From: an uncultured Anaerolineales bacterium
Lineage (GTDB): Bacteria > Chloroflexota > Anaerolineae > B4-G1
Assembly (NCBI GenBank): GCA_964421785.1
Contig: CAYQZG010000001.1
Location: 73,853 to 137,852, forward strand
Length of the DNA: 64,000 nucleotides
Direction: 5' to 3'
Shown here: in pieces, positions 9,601-20,935 of the stretch
Numbering within the stretch: the stretch's first letter is position 1
Layout: every line of letters begins with the position of its first letter
Made by a program: the position numbers and the translations under genes
The notes under the pieces: generated by a model
The model's database searches: none
Told to the model about the DNA's origin: nothing
What the model saw: only the letters and a program-made list of their open reading frames with translations

Positions 9601-11697
9601 TCAGGGAACGGCGGTGTCCATCTCTTCTTGTTCTGAGGCCTCGCGGGCAACGAGTGCCCCTGTTGGGCAGACTTCAACGCACTTGAGGCAACCATCGCAA
9701 ACCGTCTCGCCTAGTGGCAGCCCCAGATAGGGTGTGACACGGGCGTCCAGGCCCCGACCAGAGAAGTTGAAGACGCGAAGCTCCTTCACGTCGCGGCATA
9801 CCTGGACGCATTGTCCACATAGGATGCATTTGCCCGGTTCTCGAGTCAGATCAGCGTGCGAGTCGTCCAGCGAGTAGTCACGCTTCTTGCCGTCGAAGCG
9901 GTCGGGATCGGCTCCGTACGCCATGCCGTATTCGCGAAGCAGGCAATCACCGACTGCTGAACAATCGCATTCCAGGCAGCGTTTGGCCTCTTCCACCGCC
10001 GCCGGCTCTGAGAAGCACAGTTCCACCTCTTTGAAGGTGCACACGCGCTCGTTCATCCCCAATTCAGGTTGTTCGTGGCGCTTGATCTTCTCTTCGCCAG
10101 CGAAGCGGGCCTCTGGTACTTCCTCCAGGGCTCCCATCGAGACGCTCCAAAGCTCTGGTAATCCGACGACATCCTCGCCGTTCAGGTACTGATTGATGCT
10201 GGCGGCTGCCCGGCGTCCGGCTGCCACGGCTTCCACGGCGATGTTGGCGCCGGTAACACTATCACCGCCGGAGAAGAGCCATGGTTCAGAGGTCTGCATT
10301 GTCTGCTCATCGACGGCGATGGTGTCCCAGCGCGTGAGCTCTACACTGCAGTCTCTCACGCAGTTCGGGTTCACTACCTGGCCAATCGCCATGACAGCCG
10401 TGTCGCATTCGAGCGTGAACTCGGATCCCTCGATGGGGATCGGGCGCCGCCGACCGCTCTCGTCGGGTGGGCCCAACTCCATTCGGATGCTGGTTACTCT
10501 GAGCTCTTCATCGGTCTCCTCGAAGCCGACTGGTGAGGCCAGGAAATGAAACTCGACACCTTCCTCTGCGGCGGCCTCGACCTCTACATCCAGTGCCGGC
10601 ATCTCCTCGCGGGAGCGGCGATAGAGGACAGTGACGTGCTCTGCACCCAGGCGGATGGCGGTGCGGGAGACGTCAATCGCTGTGTTGCCCCCACCGACGA
10701 CGATGACCCGATTGCCGATGGTCACCTTATGACCGCGCGTCAGGCTTTCCAGTAGCTCCACGCCGCCCCAGACTCGGGTACTGTCGATGCCGGGGATGTC
10801 TATCATACGCGAGCGCTGGGCGCCGATGGCCAGGAATACGGCGTCGTAGTCGTCTCTGAGATCCTCCAATCTGATATCCTTACCGAGCTTAGTACTGCAT
10901 CGCAACTCGATGTCCAGATCGGTGATGGTCTTGATCTCGGCATCCAGCATCTCGTAGGGCAGACGATAGGCCGGGATGCCGTAGCGGAGCATACCGCCTG
11001 GTTTCTCTTGCGCTTCGTAGATGGTCACGTGATGCCCCATCTGGCGCGCGTAGTAGGCCGCTGTGAGCCCGGCTGGCCCGGCGCCAACGACGGCGACCTT
11101 GTTACCTGTATCGGGCGCGACGTCGGGCAGATAAGGGTTTTCCTTCTCAAGATCTTGTTCCCCGGCAAATCGTTTGAGCACGCATATCGCCGTGGCGTCA
11201 TCGACGCGGTGACGCCGGCAGGCATCTTCGCATGGAGCAGGACAGATCGAGCCCAAGGCTACAGGGAAAGGAATAGTCTCTTTGATGATCCGAATGGCCT
11301 CATCGTAGTCTCTATCTCCAATGGCAGCGATGAAGCCCGGGATGTCGCAGCCGGCCGGGCAATTTAGCTGACAGGGGCCCAGACAATCGCCACAGTGCTC
11401 GGAAAGCAGCAGTTCCAGTGCGAGGCGCCGCGTGTGGCGGATTTGATCGCTGTTTGTGGTGACGACCATGCCATCTCGCACCTGTGTTCCGCACGACAGA
11501 ACCGGTTTGTCTATGCCTTCCACCTCCACCACACAGAGCAGACAGGAGTTGAAGGGCTCTAGGTCGGGATGATTGCACAGTGTCGGGATGTCAATGCCCG
11601 CCTGTCGTGCCGCTTCAAGAATCGTCCAATCCTTCGCAACGGACATGACCTGTCCGTCGATTGTTATTCGCGCTCTTTCGTTATCGTTCATCGTCAT
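9601..11697 (-). CDS. 2Fe-2S ferredoxin + GltD-like (NADPH-dependent glutamate synthase beta / pyridine-nucleotide-disulfide oxidoreductase) + C-terminal 4Fe-4S domains fusion protein; catalytic subunit of NuoEF-associated complex
   Basis: N-terminal NuoG-like 2Fe-2S cysteine pattern; GltD Fe-S region (CGDCLGPCQLNCPAGC); FAD/NAD(P) Rossmann motifs (VAVVGAGPAGL, VIVVGGGNTAID); C-terminal CxxCxxC ferredoxin motifs. Start trimmed to internal Met to remove overlap with upstream gene. Confidence 0.7.
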   Translation of the reverse strand: MTMNDNERARITIDGQVMSVAKDWTILEAARQAGIDIPTLCNHPDLEPFNSCLLCVVEVEGIDKPVLSCGTQVRDGMVVTTNSDQIRHTRRLALELLLSEHCGDCLGPCQLNCPAGCDIPGFIAAIGDRDYDEAIRIIKETIPFPVALGSICPAPCEDACRRHRVDDATAICVLKRFAGEQDLEKENPYLPDVAPDTGNKVAVVGAGPAGLTAAYYARQMGHHVTIYEAQEKPGGMLRYGIPAYRLPYEMLDAEIKTITDLDIELRCSTKLGKDIRLEDLRDDYDAVFLAIGAQRSRMIDIPGIDSTRVWGGVELLESLTRGHKVTIGNRVIVVGGGNTAIDVSRTAIRLGAEHVTVLYRRSREEMPALDVEVEAAAEEGVEFHFLASPVGFEETDEELRVTSIRMELGPPDESGRRRPIPIEGSEFTLECDTAVMAIGQVVNPNCVRDCSVELTRWDTIAVDEQTMQTSEPWLFSGGDSVTGANIAVEAVAAGRRAAASINQYLNGEDVVGLPELWSVSMGALEEVPEARFAGEEKIKRHEQPELGMNERVCTFKEVELCFSEPAAVEEAKRCLECDCSAVGDCLLREYGMAYGADPDRFDGKKRDYSLDDSHADLTREPGKCILCGQCVQVCRDVKELRVFNFSGRGLDARVTPYLGLPLGETVCDGCLKCVEVCPTGALVAREASEQEEMDTAVP

Positions 11698-16221: not shown

Positions 16222-19200
16222 TTGAGCGATTTGGGTCCTACTCTCATCCGATCCAAGCTGCAGGTGCCAGTTCCTTCCGGCCTTCTTCACCGGTCGCGGC
16301 TCTGTGATGCCATCGAACAAGGCCTTGAGCGCAAGTTGACGCTTATCTCTGCCCCAGCGGGTTACGGCAAGACGTCCGCCTTAGTTGATTTTGCTTGGCA
16401 CACCTCTGTCCCTGTCTGCTGGTACACGATTGATGAGCGAAATCGAGACCTGATTTCGTTCATCAGATATATCGTCGGTGCCATCCGCGAGCAGTTCCCA
16501 GGGTTTGGTGAACGGGTACATGAGGCCTTGGCCTCTCGAGGCAGCGAGCTCTTCCGTGATCCAACCATCGCCGTCGGCGATTTGGTCAACGAGATACTCG
16601 ATCTGGGTACAGAGTTCGTCTTGGTGCTGGACAACTTCGAGTCAGTGGAGGGAGCCTTTGGCATCCGTGAGTTTGTTCACCGATTGCTCGAAGTTCTTCC
16701 CTCCGCTTGTCACTTGATGATGGGCAGTCGTGTGCTGCCCGATGTGCCGATTACACAGCTTGTCGCCAAGCGTCAGCTTGTTGGTCTCACGGAGCAGGAT
16801 CTACGCTTCAAGCCAGAAGAGGTCGTTGAACTACTTCGAGACTCAAAGATTAGGATCTCCGAGAGACAGGCAGAGGCCGTTGCCAGGAATGCAGAGGGCT
16901 GGATCACCGGCATTCTGCTTATATCAGACTTGCTGCGCGAGGATATGGGAGCCATTATCAGTGACACTCGCAAAGCCACGTCTCAGACGTACAGATATCT
17001 GGCATCAGAAGTACTGAGTCGACAGCCTTGGGATCTCAGGCGCTTCTTGCACGCCTCTTCTATCCTGCGCGAGATGTCGGCACGGCTGTGTCGAGAGGTT
17101 CTTGGTATAGAAGGGGCCCACTTCCTTCTAGCCGAAGTCGAAAGGCGCAATCTCTTTGTGACTCGATTTGGCGATGACCGCAGGGCGGCCTATCGTTACC
17201 ATAATCTCTTCAGAGGTTTTCTGCAGGAACGGATGCGGCAGCGAGAACCGACTCGCTACGCCGAGCTTCATCAGCGGGCAGCTGCCTGGTTCGAACAGGA
17301 ACACCAAGTGGAAGAGGCGGTGCATCATTACCTTGCCGCTGAGGCCTACCCTCAGGCGACAACGCTGATGGAACGAGTGGCGTTGGAGTGGTTCACCCGA
17401 GGACGCGTTGAGACGTTGCTCCGCTGGGCAGAAGCGCTACCGGAGAAGATCAGAAGTCAGGCACCACGGCTCTTTCTCTATCATAGCAAAGTACTTACCG
17501 ATCGTTACGAGCATGAGCCGGCAAAGCAGGCCCTGGCCTACGCTGAGGCCGGCTTTGCTGATGAGGGGCTGTTGGCCTGTCTGGCGAGAGTGCACCTTCA
17601 GCATGCAACGTTGGACTTGTTTGGGGGTCGATACGAGGAGGTCATTGCGGAGGCAGAGAAAGCGCTTGAGATGCTGGGTCAGCAGGAGGTCGCGGAAAGA
17701 GCTCAAGCACAACGGCTGATCGGGAGGGCGCATCTCGGGCGCGGATGCTTCGATGCAGGGATCAGTGAACTGGAGGAAGCCCTCGGATCGTATCGGGAGA
17801 TTGGTGGTCTCTACAACGTGGTCAACTTGCTGCAGGACTTGGCCTTCGCTTTTGCCTCCCAGGGACGCTTTGAGAGGGCAGCCCGGTGCTTGAACGAGGC
17901 CTTGCCGATCGCCCGTCGGCTAGAATCGCCGGCCTTGCTGGCCGGAGTGTTGAATAGCTTGGGTTGGATCGACTATGCCTGCGGAAGGTATCGAGAAGCA
18001 CTTTCTCTGTATGAGGAGGGCCTTGCGGAGGCGCGCCGGGGGGGGGATCTCCGTGGACGGGCCAACATTCTGGACGGAATGGCAAGTATCTATCGAGATG
18101 TCGGCGCCTATCGAAGGGCGGAGTCTCTCTACAGCGCCGCTTGGCGGATCTCGCGTGAAAGCAGGCCCCGCCAAGCTGTTCTGATTCTGGTGGCGCGTGC
18201 CGATATGCATCGCTGGCAGGGACAGCATAGCCGAGCTCTTACCTTGCTGGAGGAGGCTAGGCGATTGGCTGAGGAGAAGGAGCTAGTGGTTGAACGCTGT
18301 GGACCATTGGCTATGGCGGAAGGCATAGCCCTGTCTGAAAGCGGCGAACTCGATGCAGGCCTTCGAAGGCTGTCTGAGGCCGTTAGCTTTCTGGAGCAGC
18401 AGAAAGCGAAGCGCAATCTGGCTCGAGGCTGCTTCTTGCTTGCCAAGGCGCGTCTGATGGCCGAAGAGAAGCGGCAAGCTGTCGCAGAGCTCCGCCGGGC
18501 AGTGGAGCTGGCCAGAGAGATTGGCACGGATCAATTCGCTGTCGTGGAGGCGCAGCATGCGGAGGGCCTGGTCGAGGTGGGCATTAGGGAAGGGGTGGAG
18601 GGCTGTAAGACCATCCTCGATGGCGTGCAGAAACTGGAAGCATTTAGAAAAGAGTTGATGTACGATATCGTGGGGCCGGATCGGGTGTCGGAAAGGCGAC
18701 TCAAGATCTACGCTCTTGGGCAATCTCGCGTCGTGGCTCATGGAGAGCCGATCCCTGATTCCGCCTGGCAGGCAGCGATGGCAAGAGAGCTATTCTTCTA
18801 CATTCTACTGCACGGCCCCGTAGAACGGGATACTGTTGGTCTTGTCTTCTGGCCCGATCTACCATCTGACAAGATGATAAACAACTTCCACAGCACGCTC
18901 TATCGTGCGCGTCATGCTGTTGGGAGTGATGGCATAGTGCTGGAGAATGACAAGTACAGCCTGGGCGTGGACTACTGGTTCGACGTCGAGGCATTCGAAT
19001 CCCTGGTTGAGCGCGCACGTCTCTTGCCGCCTCATGATTGGCAGGTTGAGGATCTGTGGCGGCAAGTGGTAGAGCTGTACCAGGGCGATCTGCTCCCCAA
19101 TGTGGACCGGCCGTGGTGTATATCGAGGCGCGAAGCGTTGCGGGCTGGGTATGTCGAGGCGCTGAGAGAGCTGGGGCGATGTCACGAGAGTCGAGGTGCG

Positions 19201-19425
19201 TTCCAGGGCGCCATTACCTGGTACCGCCAGGCACTGAAGGTGGACGAATTGCGTGAGGATCTCCATCGATCCGTGATGCGCGCGTATGCTCAGATCGGTC
19301 GTCGCTCCGACGCAGTAGCTCACTACCGTCAATGCCAGGAGACCTTGCGTCAAGAGTTGGGCGTCGAACCTTCTTGGGAGACGAGAAACCTATACGAAAA
19401 GCTCAGTGGCGGAGTAGCTGACTGA
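16222..19425 (+). CDS. STAND-type NTPase/TPR transcriptional regulator with C-terminal SARP-like winged-helix + BTAD domain
   Basis: Walker A (SAPAGYGKTS) at N-terminus, long helical/TPR middle, C-terminal OmpR-type wHTH (LKIYALGQSRV...LFFYILLHG...LVFWPD) followed by BTAD-like region (VDYWFDVEAFESLV..., ...GVEPSWETRNLYEKL). Confidence 0.7.
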   Translation: MSDLGPTLIRSKLQVPVPSGLLHRSRLCDAIEQGLERKLTLISAPAGYGKTSALVDFAWHTSVPVCWYTIDERNRDLISFIRYIVGAIREQFPGFGERVHEALASRGSELFRDPTIAVGDLVNEILDLGTEFVLVLDNFESVEGAFGIREFVHRLLEVLPSACHLMMGSRVLPDVPITQLVAKRQLVGLTEQDLRFKPEEVVELLRDSKIRISERQAEAVARNAEGWITGILLISDLLREDMGAIISDTRKATSQTYRYLASEVLSRQPWDLRRFLHASSILREMSARLCREVLGIEGAHFLLAEVERRNLFVTRFGDDRRAAYRYHNLFRGFLQERMRQREPTRYAELHQRAAAWFEQEHQVEEAVHHYLAAEAYPQATTLMERVALEWFTRGRVETLLRWAEALPEKIRSQAPRLFLYHSKVLTDRYEHEPAKQALAYAEAGFADEGLLACLARVHLQHATLDLFGGRYEEVIAEAEKALEMLGQQEVAERAQAQRLIGRAHLGRGCFDAGISELEEALGSYREIGGLYNVVNLLQDLAFAFASQGRFERAARCLNEALPIARRLESPALLAGVLNSLGWIDYACGRYREALSLYEEGLAEARRGGDLRGRANILDGMASIYRDVGAYRRAESLYSAAWRISRESRPRQAVLILVARADMHRWQGQHSRALTLLEEARRLAEEKELVVERCGPLAMAEGIALSESGELDAGLRRLSEAVSFLEQQKAKRNLARGCFLLAKARLMAEEKRQAVAELRRAVELAREIGTDQFAVVEAQHAEGLVEVGIREGVEGCKTILDGVQKLEAFRKELMYDIVGPDRVSERRLKIYALGQSRVVAHGEPIPDSAWQAAMARELFFYILLHGPVERDTVGLVFWPDLPSDKMINNFHSTLYRARHAVGSDGIVLENDKYSLGVDYWFDVEAFESLVERARLLPPHDWQVEDLWRQVVELYQGDLLPNVDRPWCISRREALRAGYVEALRELGRCHESRGAFQGAITWYRQALKVDELREDLHRSVMRAYAQIGRRSDAVAHYRQCQETLRQELGVEPSWETRNLYEKLSGGVAD

Positions 19426-19461
19426 GCCTTTGAGCTGCTCGTTCTCCAATCTCGAAACTCG

Positions 19462-19500
19462 ATAAGAGACTGCCTCCGCGGCAGTCTCTTATTCTTTTTT
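19462..19500 (+). terminator. strong rho-independent terminator after the STAND-SARP regulator gene
   Basis: 13-bp perfect stem ATAAGAGACTGCC/GGCAGTCTCTTAT with 5-nt loop followed by TTCTTTTTT. Confidence 0.7.
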
Positions 19501-19601
19501 GAGCTTCCTCCTGTTGCCACTTCGCTGTTTGTCACCTAGCTTCTCTCCGGAAAGAAGCATCCCACTGACGGATCCTTTCGCCATCTCCTTTATTCAACTC
19601 A

Positions 19602-19642
19602 GTTTCGTTTAGAGGTTTGTTTAGAGGCCTATGCTAGTATTG
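19602..19642 (+). promoter_or_regulatory. candidate activator-dependent promoter: tandem direct repeats GTTTAGAGG (12-nt period) about 7 nt upstream of a TAGTAT -10-like hexamer
   Basis: Repeats at 19607-19615 and 19619-19627; -10-like TAGTAT 19635-19640. Layout resembles SARP box promoters, where the direct repeats replace the -35. Confidence 0.4.
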
Positions 19643-19682: not shown

Positions 19683-19871
19683 ATGACTATGAGGCAAAGA
19701 ATACTTCAGGTGTTAGCAGGTCTAGCCATGGTATCTGTGCTCTTCCTCGGTCCAGTCGGGCCTGAGCTTGCAGCACGGTCGTTGGGACAAAGGCTCTATG
19801 CAACTGACCCTGCTAGATCAGCTGGCCCGATGTCGCTATGCGGTATCGATGGCGGTGGTAGTGGGGCCTAA
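19683..19871 (+). CDS. small hypothetical protein with N-terminal hydrophobic (signal/TM-like) segment; coding status uncertain
   Basis: 62-aa ORF preceded by strong RBS GAAGGGGGG; hydrophobic N-terminus ILQVLAGLAMVSVLFLG; codon usage (GC3) atypical for this genome. Confidence 0.25.
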   Translation: MTMRQRILQVLAGLAMVSVLFLGPVGPELAARSLGQRLYATDPARSAGPMSLCGIDGGGSGA

Positions 19872-19882
19872 GGGGGAATGAC

Positions 19883-20110
19883 GTGCCACGAAAAGTTGAC
19901 GAACTGATGTGGCGTGCATTGACTGATGCTGCCTTCCGGGAAGGGCTCATGAACGGCCAACGACGGGAATTGGTCGATGCTATGGGGTTGACCGGAGCGG
20001 AGCGAGAGGCAGTGCTGACGGTGGAGGCCGAGTCGCTTGAGGACTTCGCCGGTGCGCTTTGTCAATCCTGTGCCAAGTCATCAATTATACAGGGGGGCAG
20101 TGTCATTTGA
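19883..20110 (+). CDS. small peptide with NHLP/Nif11-type leader-like domain (candidate RiPP-type precursor or small regulatory protein)
   Basis: 75 aa, GTG start 7 nt after AGGGGG RBS; motif ALTDAAFREGLMNGQRRELVDAMGLTGAEREAVL matches the NHLP leader consensus (AWxDxxFKxxLLxNPKxALxxxGVxLPxGVEI) position by position; Cys/Ser-containing C-terminus (CQSCAKSSIIQGGSVI). Confidence 0.4.
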   Translation: MPRKVDELMWRALTDAAFREGLMNGQRRELVDAMGLTGAEREAVLTVEAESLEDFAGALCQSCAKSSIIQGGSVI

Positions 20111-20142
20111 GCGTACATACGGGAAGCACTGTGTCCCATACA

Positions 20143-20382
20143 ATGCTTAGACAACTGGTTGGCCTGGCCTTGGTCGATAGAGCGTTCTGCGACGACTTGA
20201 TGAACGGTAAGCGGCTTGCACTCCTGGCCGAATTCGATCTTACCGACGAGGAACGAGAGATCGTGGCGTCCTTTGAGACGGGGTCGGTGCGGGAGCTTGC
20301 CATAACTGTACACAACTGGCTCAAGAAGCAGGACAGCCCGGCCTCTCCTCACGTAGACTGCAGCACGACTCAAGTTCTGTAG
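20143..20382 (+). CDS. second, paralogous NHLP/Nif11-leader-like small peptide
   Basis: Aligns with upstream peptide (ALVDRAFCDDLMNGKRLALLAEFDLTDEEREIV); alternative starts GTG 20131 / TTG 20059. Distinct C-terminus (HNWLKKQDSPASPHVDCSTTQVL). Confidence 0.4.
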   Translation: MLRQLVGLALVDRAFCDDLMNGKRLALLAEFDLTDEEREIVASFETGSVRELAITVHNWLKKQDSPASPHVDCSTTQVL

Positions 20383-20389
20383 GAATTCT

Positions 20390-20935
20390 GTGTCTGAGTC
20401 ACGTTATCTGTATGAGGGGAACGGACGGGCATATCTTGGCGAGGTGCCCTTATGTTTGGAGGGATTCCTAGTCGAGAGCTTGGCCTATGGCTTGCTGCAG
20501 GTTTTTGGTGTCAAGGGGCCACCTGTGCCTGTGCGAGATATGGTACGGGATCCTCACCCGGTCTTTGAGCGCTTGAGCCTGTTGGAGCTCAATATCGGTC
20601 TGTACGATGCCGTCTATCGATCGTTGGTCAATGGCTCGCGTCTGATCGCGGTCGATCTGGGCCATCCACTCGCCGTTCAGCGCTTTGCAATGGCCAGGGA
20701 GCTTTACGTGGCTTTCTGTTGTTCCCATCGCGCGGTTGAGTTGGATTGGCCTGATCGGGATCACCCACGAATGCACAGTAGTTTCTTCGCTCGTTGTCTG
20801 CTGATGCCAGCAGCGTGGGTGAAACACGTCGGTGCCAGGACTGGCTCTCTGGCAGAGCTGGCTGCTGTTTTCGGCGTTTCAACCAAGATGATGACCCTTA
20901 GGATGCAGGAAACAGACACAGAGCTTACAGCGTAG
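20390..20935 (+). CDS. ImmA/IrrE (DUF955)-like domain protein, apparently lacking the HEXXH catalytic motif
   Basis: C-terminal region SFFARCLLMPAAWV...LAELAAVFGVSTKMMTLRMQE resembles ImmA/IrrE family (ANxFAaeLLMP...fgVS); position of HEXXH occupied by 'AMARELY...CCSH'. Confidence 0.4.
   Translation: MSESRYLYEGNGRAYLGEVPLCLEGFLVESLAYGLLQVFGVKGPPVPVRDMVRDPHPVFERLSLLELNIGLYDAVYRSLVNGSRLIAVDLGHPLAVQRFAMARELYVAFCCSHRAVELDWPDRDHPRMHSSFFARCLLMPAAWVKHVGARTGSLAELAAVFGVSTKMMTLRMQETDTELTA

Follow-up and report, generated by a model that had tools for sequence, protein, structure and literature searches.

An ImmA/IrrE-fold protein without zinc ligands, encoded beside NHLP-like small proteins in uncultured Anaerolineae

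Introduction

Proteins of the ImmA/IrrE/CapP group are the standard repressor-cutting switches of mobile elements, of the Deinococcus radiation response and of CBASS defence. What does such a protein do when its metal site is gone and the repressor beside it has been replaced? The question is raised by a gene on a stretch of 64,000 nucleotides (nt) from an uncultured Anaerolineales bacterium (assembly GCA_964421785.1, contig CAYQZG010000001.1, positions 73,853 to 137,852), which is called the window below and whose positions are used throughout; all features described lie on its + strand. The gene (20390..20935, with a GTG start) encodes a protein of 181 amino acids (aa) with the ImmA/IrrE (M78) fold, in which the zinc ligands are absent, and it follows two genes for small NHLP-like proteins, here named pepA and pepB. 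Further upstream lie a small open reading frame (ORF), sig, and a gene for a large regulator, and the five genes together form a cassette that recurs in related genomes. The reading favoured here, with a probability of roughly 55%, is that the M78-like protein is a non-catalytic member of its fold that docks pepB within a peptide-centred regulatory operon. A non-catalytic role is preferred because three ligands have been lost, because natural E104A and E104G members exist, because the wider HEXXH-less relatives conserve no alternative set of residues, and because there is a precedent in PrpR, whose M78-like domain lacks HEXXH and is part of a ligand-binding regulator (PMC6765138).

The M78 Fold

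The Pfam family PF06114 (Peptidase_M78, IrrE N-terminal-like) matches residues 65-171 of the M78-like protein with E=8e-8 and 32.6 bits, the gathering cut-off being 22 bits. Searches of PDB sequences with the protein alone returned nothing relevant, and the family profile found CapP only, weakly (E=0.15) and over the 'FA..LLMP' helix, so that a comparison of folds was needed. An AlphaFold2 model made with 42 homologues as input (predicted local distance difference test, pLDDT, 89.4; predicted template modelling score, pTM, 0.83) is matched by Foldseek with probability 1.00 to CapP (7t5t, E=4e-5), IrrE (3dte/3dti) and PprI (8sln/8slm), and equally with probability 1.00 to the M78-like part of Mycobacterium tuberculosis PrpR (6cyj, 6cz6). 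Since the Pfam match exceeds its cut-off and the model matches CapP, IrrE, PprI and PrpR, the assignment of the product to M78 (DUF955) is sound. An earlier note on this DNA had placed an ImmA/IrrE (DUF955) signature in the C-terminal half of the protein and had proposed a profile alignment against PF06114 and a structure prediction as checks. Both support M78, and the strings cited there are found in the protein (RFAMARELYVAFCCSH at residues 98-113, SFFARCLLMPAAW at 131-143 and LAELAAVFGVSTKMMTLRMQE at 154-174).

M78 is the sole Pfam domain above cut-off in the 181 aa, where no XRE, GAF-like or Fe-S domain was detected. The PADLOC test for defence systems gave a capP match of 16.7 bits and nothing more for the protein, and an Rfam scan of the window gave no match. 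A public protein collection holds a 181-aa protein identical to the product (P0001).

Loss of the Zinc Ligands

The position of the former active site was read from an hmmalign alignment, in which 146 library representatives from an exhaustive profile search were aligned onto the family profile. The HEXXH of canonical relatives (e.g. QRFSLAHEFKHV, KRFTLAHELGHL) falls on R103-E104-L105-Y106-V107 of the window protein (codons 20696..20710), and their third-ligand Glu, within '..ER.ADYFAACLLMP', aligns with R127 (codon 20768..20770), which the alignment with CapP ('IEAQADLFASYLLMP') likewise places there. Column counts in 90 homologues give the same picture at both sites: R103, Y106, V107 and C110 are each present in 90/90, column 104 holds E in 85, A in 4 and G in 1, and column 127 holds R, Y, H, S or N and Glu in none. 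The earlier note was therefore right that neither metal-ligating His is present (R103 and V107 stand in their places, in 90/90), and the loss goes beyond what it had claimed, as the third ligand Glu is replaced as well (R127). With all three zinc ligands lost, the M78-like protein is, to judge from these alignments, very unlikely to act as a metalloprotease.

An apparent loss of this kind could arise as an alignment artefact in an ordinary ImmA/IrrE metalloprotease, whose motif would have shifted and would use the His of 'CCSH', and the window protein does have His at positions 113, 125 and 129, near the motif region. However, the 'CCSH' position (113) is His in 3/90 homologues, positions 125 and 129 vary, not one member contains a HEXXH string, and the canonical HEXXH aligns unambiguously on RELYV, anchored by the shared QRF..A and FA.CLLMP. 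These observations refute the artefact, the probability of which is next to nil. The earlier note had named two outcomes that would speak against it, a shifted HEXXH and a lack of any DUF955 similarity. Both were looked for: the lack of conservation of the 'CCSH' His among the 90 homologues excludes a shifted HEXXH, and the DUF955 similarity is real.

H56 is the sole column in which at least half of the residues are His (47/89). C136 was considered as a new metal ligand and rejected, as HEXXH-bearing relatives share the FAACLLMP in which it lies. C110 is specific to the family and is not retained in the wider HEXXH-less relatives, which read ARA, AKA, ACS or ARL at the motif and keep no replacement catalytic set.

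The gene itself is maintained. Among seven near-clade M78-like genes the pairwise ratio of non-synonymous to synonymous substitution rates (dN/dS) has a median of 0.12, a rough figure as dS is near saturation, with dN far below dS. With dN/dS at about 0.12 the gene is not decaying, and it is under purifying selection.

Cassette Architecture and the Presumed Partner pepB

Peptide genes lie upstream of the M78-like gene in 23/23 related loci (L001-L023), and the order regulator, sig, one or two pepA, pepB, M78-like is found in 16/16 loci that reach far enough upstream. In the window the gaps sig-pepA, pepA-pepB and pepB-M78-like measure 11, 20 and 7 nt with no terminator between, an arrangement in which the M78-like gene is predicted to close a four-gene operon made up of sig, pepA, pepB and itself. 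The grouping of the M78-like gene with two NHLP-like ORFs in one operon, asserted in the earlier note, is borne out by these gaps. That note had also pointed to the absence of an XRE partner and to the small peptides upstream in its stead, and had suggested co-conservation with NHLP-like peptides as a check. No XRE repressor is present in the cassette, NHLP-clan proteins precede the M78-like gene in 23/23 loci, and the co-conservation extends to gene fusions in 6/90 clusters.

The gene pepB (20131..20382, probable start GTG 20131) encodes an 83-aa NHLP-like paralogue of pepA, with five helices and a disordered tail. pepA (19883..20110) encodes a 75-aa small protein of the NHLP clan, in the LigA-like fold group, and the two paralogues measure ~65-85 aa across loci. 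Their family scores are sub-threshold: 27.4 bits (pepA) and 23.9 bits against NF038399 (NH_RiPP_Os17) and 17 bits against PF14407 (Frankia_peptide), all below the curated cut-offs of 40 bits and 48 bits, respectively. Searches for pepB homologues returned 3 proteins with the single sequence and 448 with an alignment; many of these 448 pepA/pepB homologues carry precomputed PF14407 hits, and all 120 listed that bear names are called 'hypothetical'. ECOD places Frankia_peptide, Nif11, NHase_alpha, ComX and DurB, which are precursors and enzymes of peptides that are ribosomally synthesised and modified after translation (RiPPs), in one 'LigA-like domain' group (PMC12353581). The structures listed in the fold comparison of pepB include a borosin methyltransferase (7twm) and DesB (3wku). 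pepB is a helical domain of this LigA-like group, to which RiPP leader and docking domains belong, and it is neither an XRE repressor nor a disguised ImmR.

pepB is always either directly upstream of the M78-like gene (gap 7-8 nt) or fused to it. Fusion in frame to the N-terminus of the M78-like protein occurs in 6/90 clusters (P0065, P0067, P0069, P0074, P0079 and P0081), which occupy at least 3 separate positions in a neighbour-joining tree, and several of the fusions are seen on multiple contigs. In the fused loci L001 and L017, pepB does not occur as a gene of its own. The fusion is a Rosetta-stone link, and no other observation speaks as strongly for pepB and the M78-like protein working together physically; the two would bind each other. 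A distant member with 35% identity, in a groundwater Chloroflexi metagenome-assembled genome (MAG; L023, 104-2943, motif SAREMLSG), retains a related regulator and an NHLP-like ORF directly upstream, so the pairing of M78-like and NHLP-like proteins reaches beyond the core family.

The surroundings of the cassette bear on whether the M78-like gene could be what is left, in decay and without function, of an immunity module from a prophage or mobile element, an ImmA that has lost its ImmR. Canonical ImmA genes are typical of mobile elements, and the nearest HEXXH-intact relative (L036, 7145-8222, in an Ilumatobacter MAG, with HEFKH and FARCLLMP) adjoins a large serine recombinase. An XRE/HTH_31 gene lies directly upstream of it, in two frames through an apparent assembly frameshift, and this locus is a classical ImmR/ImmA pair on a mobile element, in contrast to the window cassette. 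In the near clade, flanking genes are common to relatives on both sides in what is ordinary synteny; between near and far clades the five cassette genes are common and no flanking gene is. The window neighbours are an aminotransferase, a Nuo51-like protein, an SBP_bac_3 protein, a PTPS_related membrane protein and a LysM protein, and the window holds one cassette of this type. No integrase was seen near the cassette, and phage and plasmid collections gave no match to the window protein. This syntenic chromosomal neighbourhood, the dN/dS of ~0.12 and an ORF intact in 90 clusters refute decay, and the idea of a remnant can hardly be entertained.

The same neighbourhood contains no RiPP maturase (YcaO; radical SAM, rSAM; LanM; ATP-grasp; methyltransferase) and no PCAT exporter. 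Because no maturase is nearby, pepA and pepB may fall outside the usual meaning of RiPP precursors. Each of the 23 core loci has pepA in one or two copies, and the dN/dS of this gene is ~0.12. In the window pepA ends in ...LEDFAGA-LCQSCAKSSIIQGGSVI, and across loci the tail reads ...LEAFAGA-LCQ, followed by 1-14 residues. The end is double-glycine-like (L at -7, F at -4, G at -2 and A at -1), with LCQ and the following 1-14 residues as a short, partly conserved core; the -7/-4/-2/-1 pattern is that of NHLP leader ends. Far-clade pepB stops directly after the helical domain and has no core. Tandem duplication of pepA is seen in several far-clade loci (L001 9401-9875, L016 7094-7627, L019 2156-2705 and L021 3783-4465), where the C-terminal tails of the copies differ beyond the conserved ...AGALCQ.

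The end of pepA gives a foothold to the main rival, according to which the M78-like protein is still a peptidase with non-canonical chemistry or ligands, using for example E104 with C110, C136 or E117, or binding metal differently. The NHLP-like leader of pepA would be cut off at LEAFAGA|LCQ, and pepB would be a leader-like recognition subunit, as in split borosin systems; the B1/B2 proteins of lasso peptides, which are split or fused, offer a further comparison. The double-glycine-like motif followed by a short core fits such a cleavage, as does the lack of any other protease or PCAT transporter within the cassette, and E104 is found in 85/90 homologues while C110 and C136 are invariant or nearly so. 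Yet the three zinc ligands are gone and their substitutes (R, V and R/Y/H) make no plausible ligand set. Five natural members have A or G in place of E104, C136 is a legacy of HEXXH-bearing relatives, the wider HEXXH-less ones do not retain C110, and far-clade pepB is coreless. Peptidase activity of this kind is unlikely.

Regulator, Promoter and C-Terminal Helices

The first cassette gene (16222..19425) forms a separate transcription unit and encodes a regulator of 1067 aa, with a MalT-like STAND ATPase, a TPR region and a C-terminal winged-helix plus BTAD (SARP) domain. Pfam assigns BTAD to residues 920-1061 (E=3.4e-25), together with TPR_MalT and TPR_12. In 16/16 loci that reach that far, an orthologue (~1070 aa) precedes the peptide and M78-like genes. 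Just past the regulator gene lies a terminator-like hairpin with a 14-bp stem and a following T run (19461..19503), and similar GGCTGCC...GGCAGCC hairpins occur at the same place in other loci.

Between this hairpin and sig lies a tandem direct repeat, TTCGTTTAGAGG / TTTGTTTAGAGG, with a 12-bp period (19604..19627), which is a candidate site for the SARP domain. It consists of TTYGTTTAGAGG twice over and lies ~80 nt upstream of sig. Other loci have the repeats in a conserved position, with distant-clade variants such as GTAAGAGATTTGTAAGAG, and a regular expression for the repeat pair gave 9 matches in 510 kb of locus DNA, all on the + strand and all between regulator and sig. An extended -10-like element, TGC-TAGTAT (TGCTAGTAT, 19632..19640), was read from the sequence, its TAGTAT lying 7 nt past the second repeat. 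TG(C/G)TAnnnT stands at the same offset in 11/12 loci that show repeats, L020 having TATACT without TG. A generic sigma-70 scan did not call TGC-TAGTAT, and no -35 element is present. In SARP promoters, direct repeats are one helical turn apart and the 3' repeat lies ~8 bp from the -10 element (PMC10936776). The predicted sig promoter agrees with the layout given in that paper, having a BTAD regulator, a 12-bp period and 7 nt to TAGTAT, and it would place a SARP-type promoter (19604-19640) in a Chloroflexota genome. Two loci have extra DNA between regulator and sig: in L013 (6623-7321) the repeats lie ~700 nt upstream of sig as against ~80 nt elsewhere, and in L014 (5913-7275), with a regulator-sig gap of ~1.4 kb, no repeat pair was found.

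The small ORF sig (19689..19871) is preceded by the ribosome-binding site GAGAAGGGGGG and encodes 60 aa from ATG 19689 (62 aa from 19683). Its product has a basic N-terminus, a strongly hydrophobic, signal-peptide-like core of 15 residues and a Gly/Ser-rich tail, ...SLCGIDGGGSGA. ORFs of 50-66 aa with this layout and a ...GGGS(S/G).. tail (..C..DGGGSS..) stand between regulator and pepA in 14/14 loci examined (the window, L001, L005, L007, L010 and L013-L021). No Pfam or NCBIfam family matched sig. In its layout the product resembles the secreted pro-peptides of TPR-regulator signalling systems.

A second structure with possible DNA contacts belongs to the M78-like protein itself. The helix pair at its C-terminus (residues 154-180, LAELAAVFGVSTKMMTLRMQE, 20849..20929; model helices 154-161 and 165-180) is the helix-turn-helix (HTH)-like end of the M78 domain. 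The pair has been kept and is conserved, F161 and R171 being invariant among homologues, which over this region give weak sub-threshold matches to HTH_20, HTH_24 and Rrf2 (~12-14 bits). Through these helices the protein might be a DNA- or ssDNA-binding regulator, in the manner of PrpR/RamB or of the DNA-sensing face of PprI/CapP, with pepB as a modulator and not a client. Besides the conserved pair and the HTH-family matches, this proposal can draw on the PprI-ssDNA complex 8sln and PrpR, which are among the best fold matches, and on the fact that PrpR is a transcription factor with a HEXXH-less M78-like domain. However, the HTH matches fall far under their cut-offs, the helix pair is common to every M78 domain and its retention is thus not specific evidence, the protein has 181 aa only and none of the XRE, GAF-like or Fe-S domains, and the cassette already contains a dedicated DNA-binding activator. 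The chance that DNA binding is the role of the M78-like protein is slim.

Proposed Role of the M78-Like Protein

Taken together with an M78 fold that has lost its zinc ligands, these features suggest the following arrangement. The earlier note had already suggested a pseudo-protease that might bind or sense the upstream peptides; the parts of that suggestion open to testing are borne out, while the binding or sensing role stays a proposal. The SARP domain of the regulator would bind the two tandem repeats abutting the -10 element, probably activating the sig-pepA-pepB-M78-like operon. pepB would be the direct partner of the M78-like protein, in the place that an XRE repressor takes beside canonical ImmA, and the M78-like protein would dock its helical (LigA-like) domain. 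The former substrate groove may hold a peptide instead of cutting it, with the pepB tail, the FAGA-LCQ end of pepA and the Gly/Ser tail of sig as candidate clients. Within a peptide-centred circuit under the control of the neighbouring regulator, the complex of M78-like protein and pepB could then be a receptor or adaptor.

Several points weigh against this arrangement. Its regulatory output is a guess. The fusion demonstrates functional coupling, which is not necessarily binding of a peptide by the groove. Around the former active site, E104 (85/90), R103, Y106, C110, S112 and C136 are strongly conserved; such conservation would be expected of a retained groove, yet it is also compatible with a catalytic role that has gone unrecognised. 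In the window the repeats have a period of 12 bp as against 11 bp in classical SARP sites, and every member of the family comes from uncultured MAGs.

A bolder proposal extends the same components into a system of their own, and is doubtful. The five genes would constitute an undescribed peptide-signalling or RiPP-like system of the Anaerolineae/Thermoflexales, comprising a STAND-SARP activator, a GGGS-tailed secreted pro-peptide, one or two short-core precursors of ComX/NHLP-like type, and a leader-mimic pepB bound or fused to a dead M78 protein. If this were true, the M78 fold would have been recruited as a dedicated receptor for docking leaders or peptides, a role not known for this protease family. 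In a more radical version, the M78-like protein would be a metal-independent leader peptidase.

Distribution and Relatives

At 90% identity the family falls into 90 clusters. Among 1.8 billion protein representatives in a library, 11 match at E<1e-30, 35 at <1e-10 and 646 at <1e-3, and a scan of species-representative genomes gave 34 loci (L004-L037). Of these, 32/34 belong to Chloroflexota MAGs (Anaerolineae, Anaerolineales and Thermoflexales), the two others being the Ilumatobacter locus L036 and L037 of a Clostridia MAG. The five-gene cassette is confined to uncultured bacteria of Anaerolineae type (Anaerolineae/Thermoflexales MAGs).

A second, more distant group of HEXXH-less M78-like proteins (L024-L035, e.g. 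L025 7941-8441; ~140-190 aa) occurs in Thermoflexales and Anaerolineae genomes and carries the motif 'ARLLYR', in which the Glu is lost too, together with FARCLLMP. None of these loci has the regulator or NHLP-like genes. In six of them the M78-like gene adjoins a gene for a ~510-aa aldehyde-dehydrogenase-like protein, a neighbour that reflects synteny only and offers no clue to function.

Far-clade M78-like proteins bear a conserved C-terminal extension of ~85 aa, ..SLTEALFSLKEPWRGRFLDLV..LPTQ.EV..WL..NPGLYQD.RYMLDAW, found in P0043, P0059, P0060, P0065, P0066, P0068, P0073, P0074, P0081, P0089 and P0090 (e.g. L001 ~10690-10945). The extension was considered as a further NHLP-like domain and rejected, with an hhalign probability of 0.1 and no Pfam hit.

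Comparison with Known Systems

The M78-like clade is a clean, family-wide case of an M78 fold without a metal site, in which the XRE partner has been replaced by an NHLP/LigA-like protein and fusion of the two has occurred repeatedly. The M78-like/pepB pair is defined and testable, and offers a way into the role of a dead M78 domain. The cassette is compact and conserved in a poorly studied, mostly uncultured phylum, and could represent a new form of peptide-based regulation or communication. For annotation, two warnings follow: 'ImmA/IrrE family metallo-endopeptidase' is the wrong functional label for this clade, and NHLP-clan hits without maturases are not RiPP clusters by default. Searches of the literature gave no paper on the clade or the cassette; the 'srp' proteusins of sponges were considered and set aside as a different system, based on YcaO.

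The regulator and its promoter recall the AfsR-afsS pairs of actinomycetes, in which a large NOD/TPR/SARP regulator also stands beside small-protein genes, and tandem direct repeats about one helical turn apart in the promoter abut the -10 element (PMC10936776). The domain order of AfsR is SARP-NOD-TPR, whereas that of the window regulator is reversed (ATPase, TPR, C-terminal SARP), and the window system differs further in its Chloroflexota host, its four-gene operon target and its 12-bp repeat period. RRNPP peptide signalling, in which a TPR regulator stands beside a gene for a small secreted pro-peptide, was considered for the cassette as well. A TPR regulator and a signal-peptide-like ORF of 50-66 aa with a conserved C-terminal tail occur in 14/14 loci, but the regulator is of STAND/SARP type and not of the RRNPP fold.

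pepA and pepB appear, on sub-threshold scores, to belong to the same clan as the NHLP/Nif11/Frankia_peptide precursors and the LigA-like docking domains of split borosins and ComX. The leader-end-like motif with a short tail of NHLP RiPP systems is also present in pepA (LEAFAGA). Those systems have a maturase and/or PCAT, however, whereas the window cassette has neither; pepB is often coreless, and the sole enzyme-like partner is a dead protease.

With ImmA, IrrE (PprI) and CapP (MEROPS M78) the M78-like protein shares a helix at the N-terminus, a sheet of three strands, helices bearing 'QRF..A.E' and 'FA.CLLMP', and the HTH-like pair of helices at the C-terminus. It resembles ImmA also in being small and free-standing, with its gene directly downstream of that of the presumed partner. 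Where that family has zinc ligands and an XRE partner, this protein has R103, V107 and R127 and a helical partner of the NHLP clan, and the catalytic Glu is dispensable in some members (E104A/G). In contrast to the mobile-element setting of ImmA, the window gene is chromosomal and not on a mobile element, and the GAF-like C-terminal domain of IrrE is lacking. The protein is thus a member of M78 by sequence and fold that fails the functional definition of the family (HEXXH, third Glu, XRE substrate).

The closest parallel is offered by the PrpR/RamB regulators, whose M78-like domain is also without a conserved HEXXH and is put to a regulatory, non-proteolytic use (PMC6765138). PrpR measures ~480 residues and has an N-terminal XRE domain, a CoA-binding cavity with a GAF-like (DUF2083) domain and a 4Fe-4S cluster, all of which are absent from the 181-aa protein, and in the fused M78-like proteins the added domain is NHLP-like, unlike in PrpR. 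By analogy, the M78-like protein would work most like the HEXXH-less domain of PrpR/RamB.

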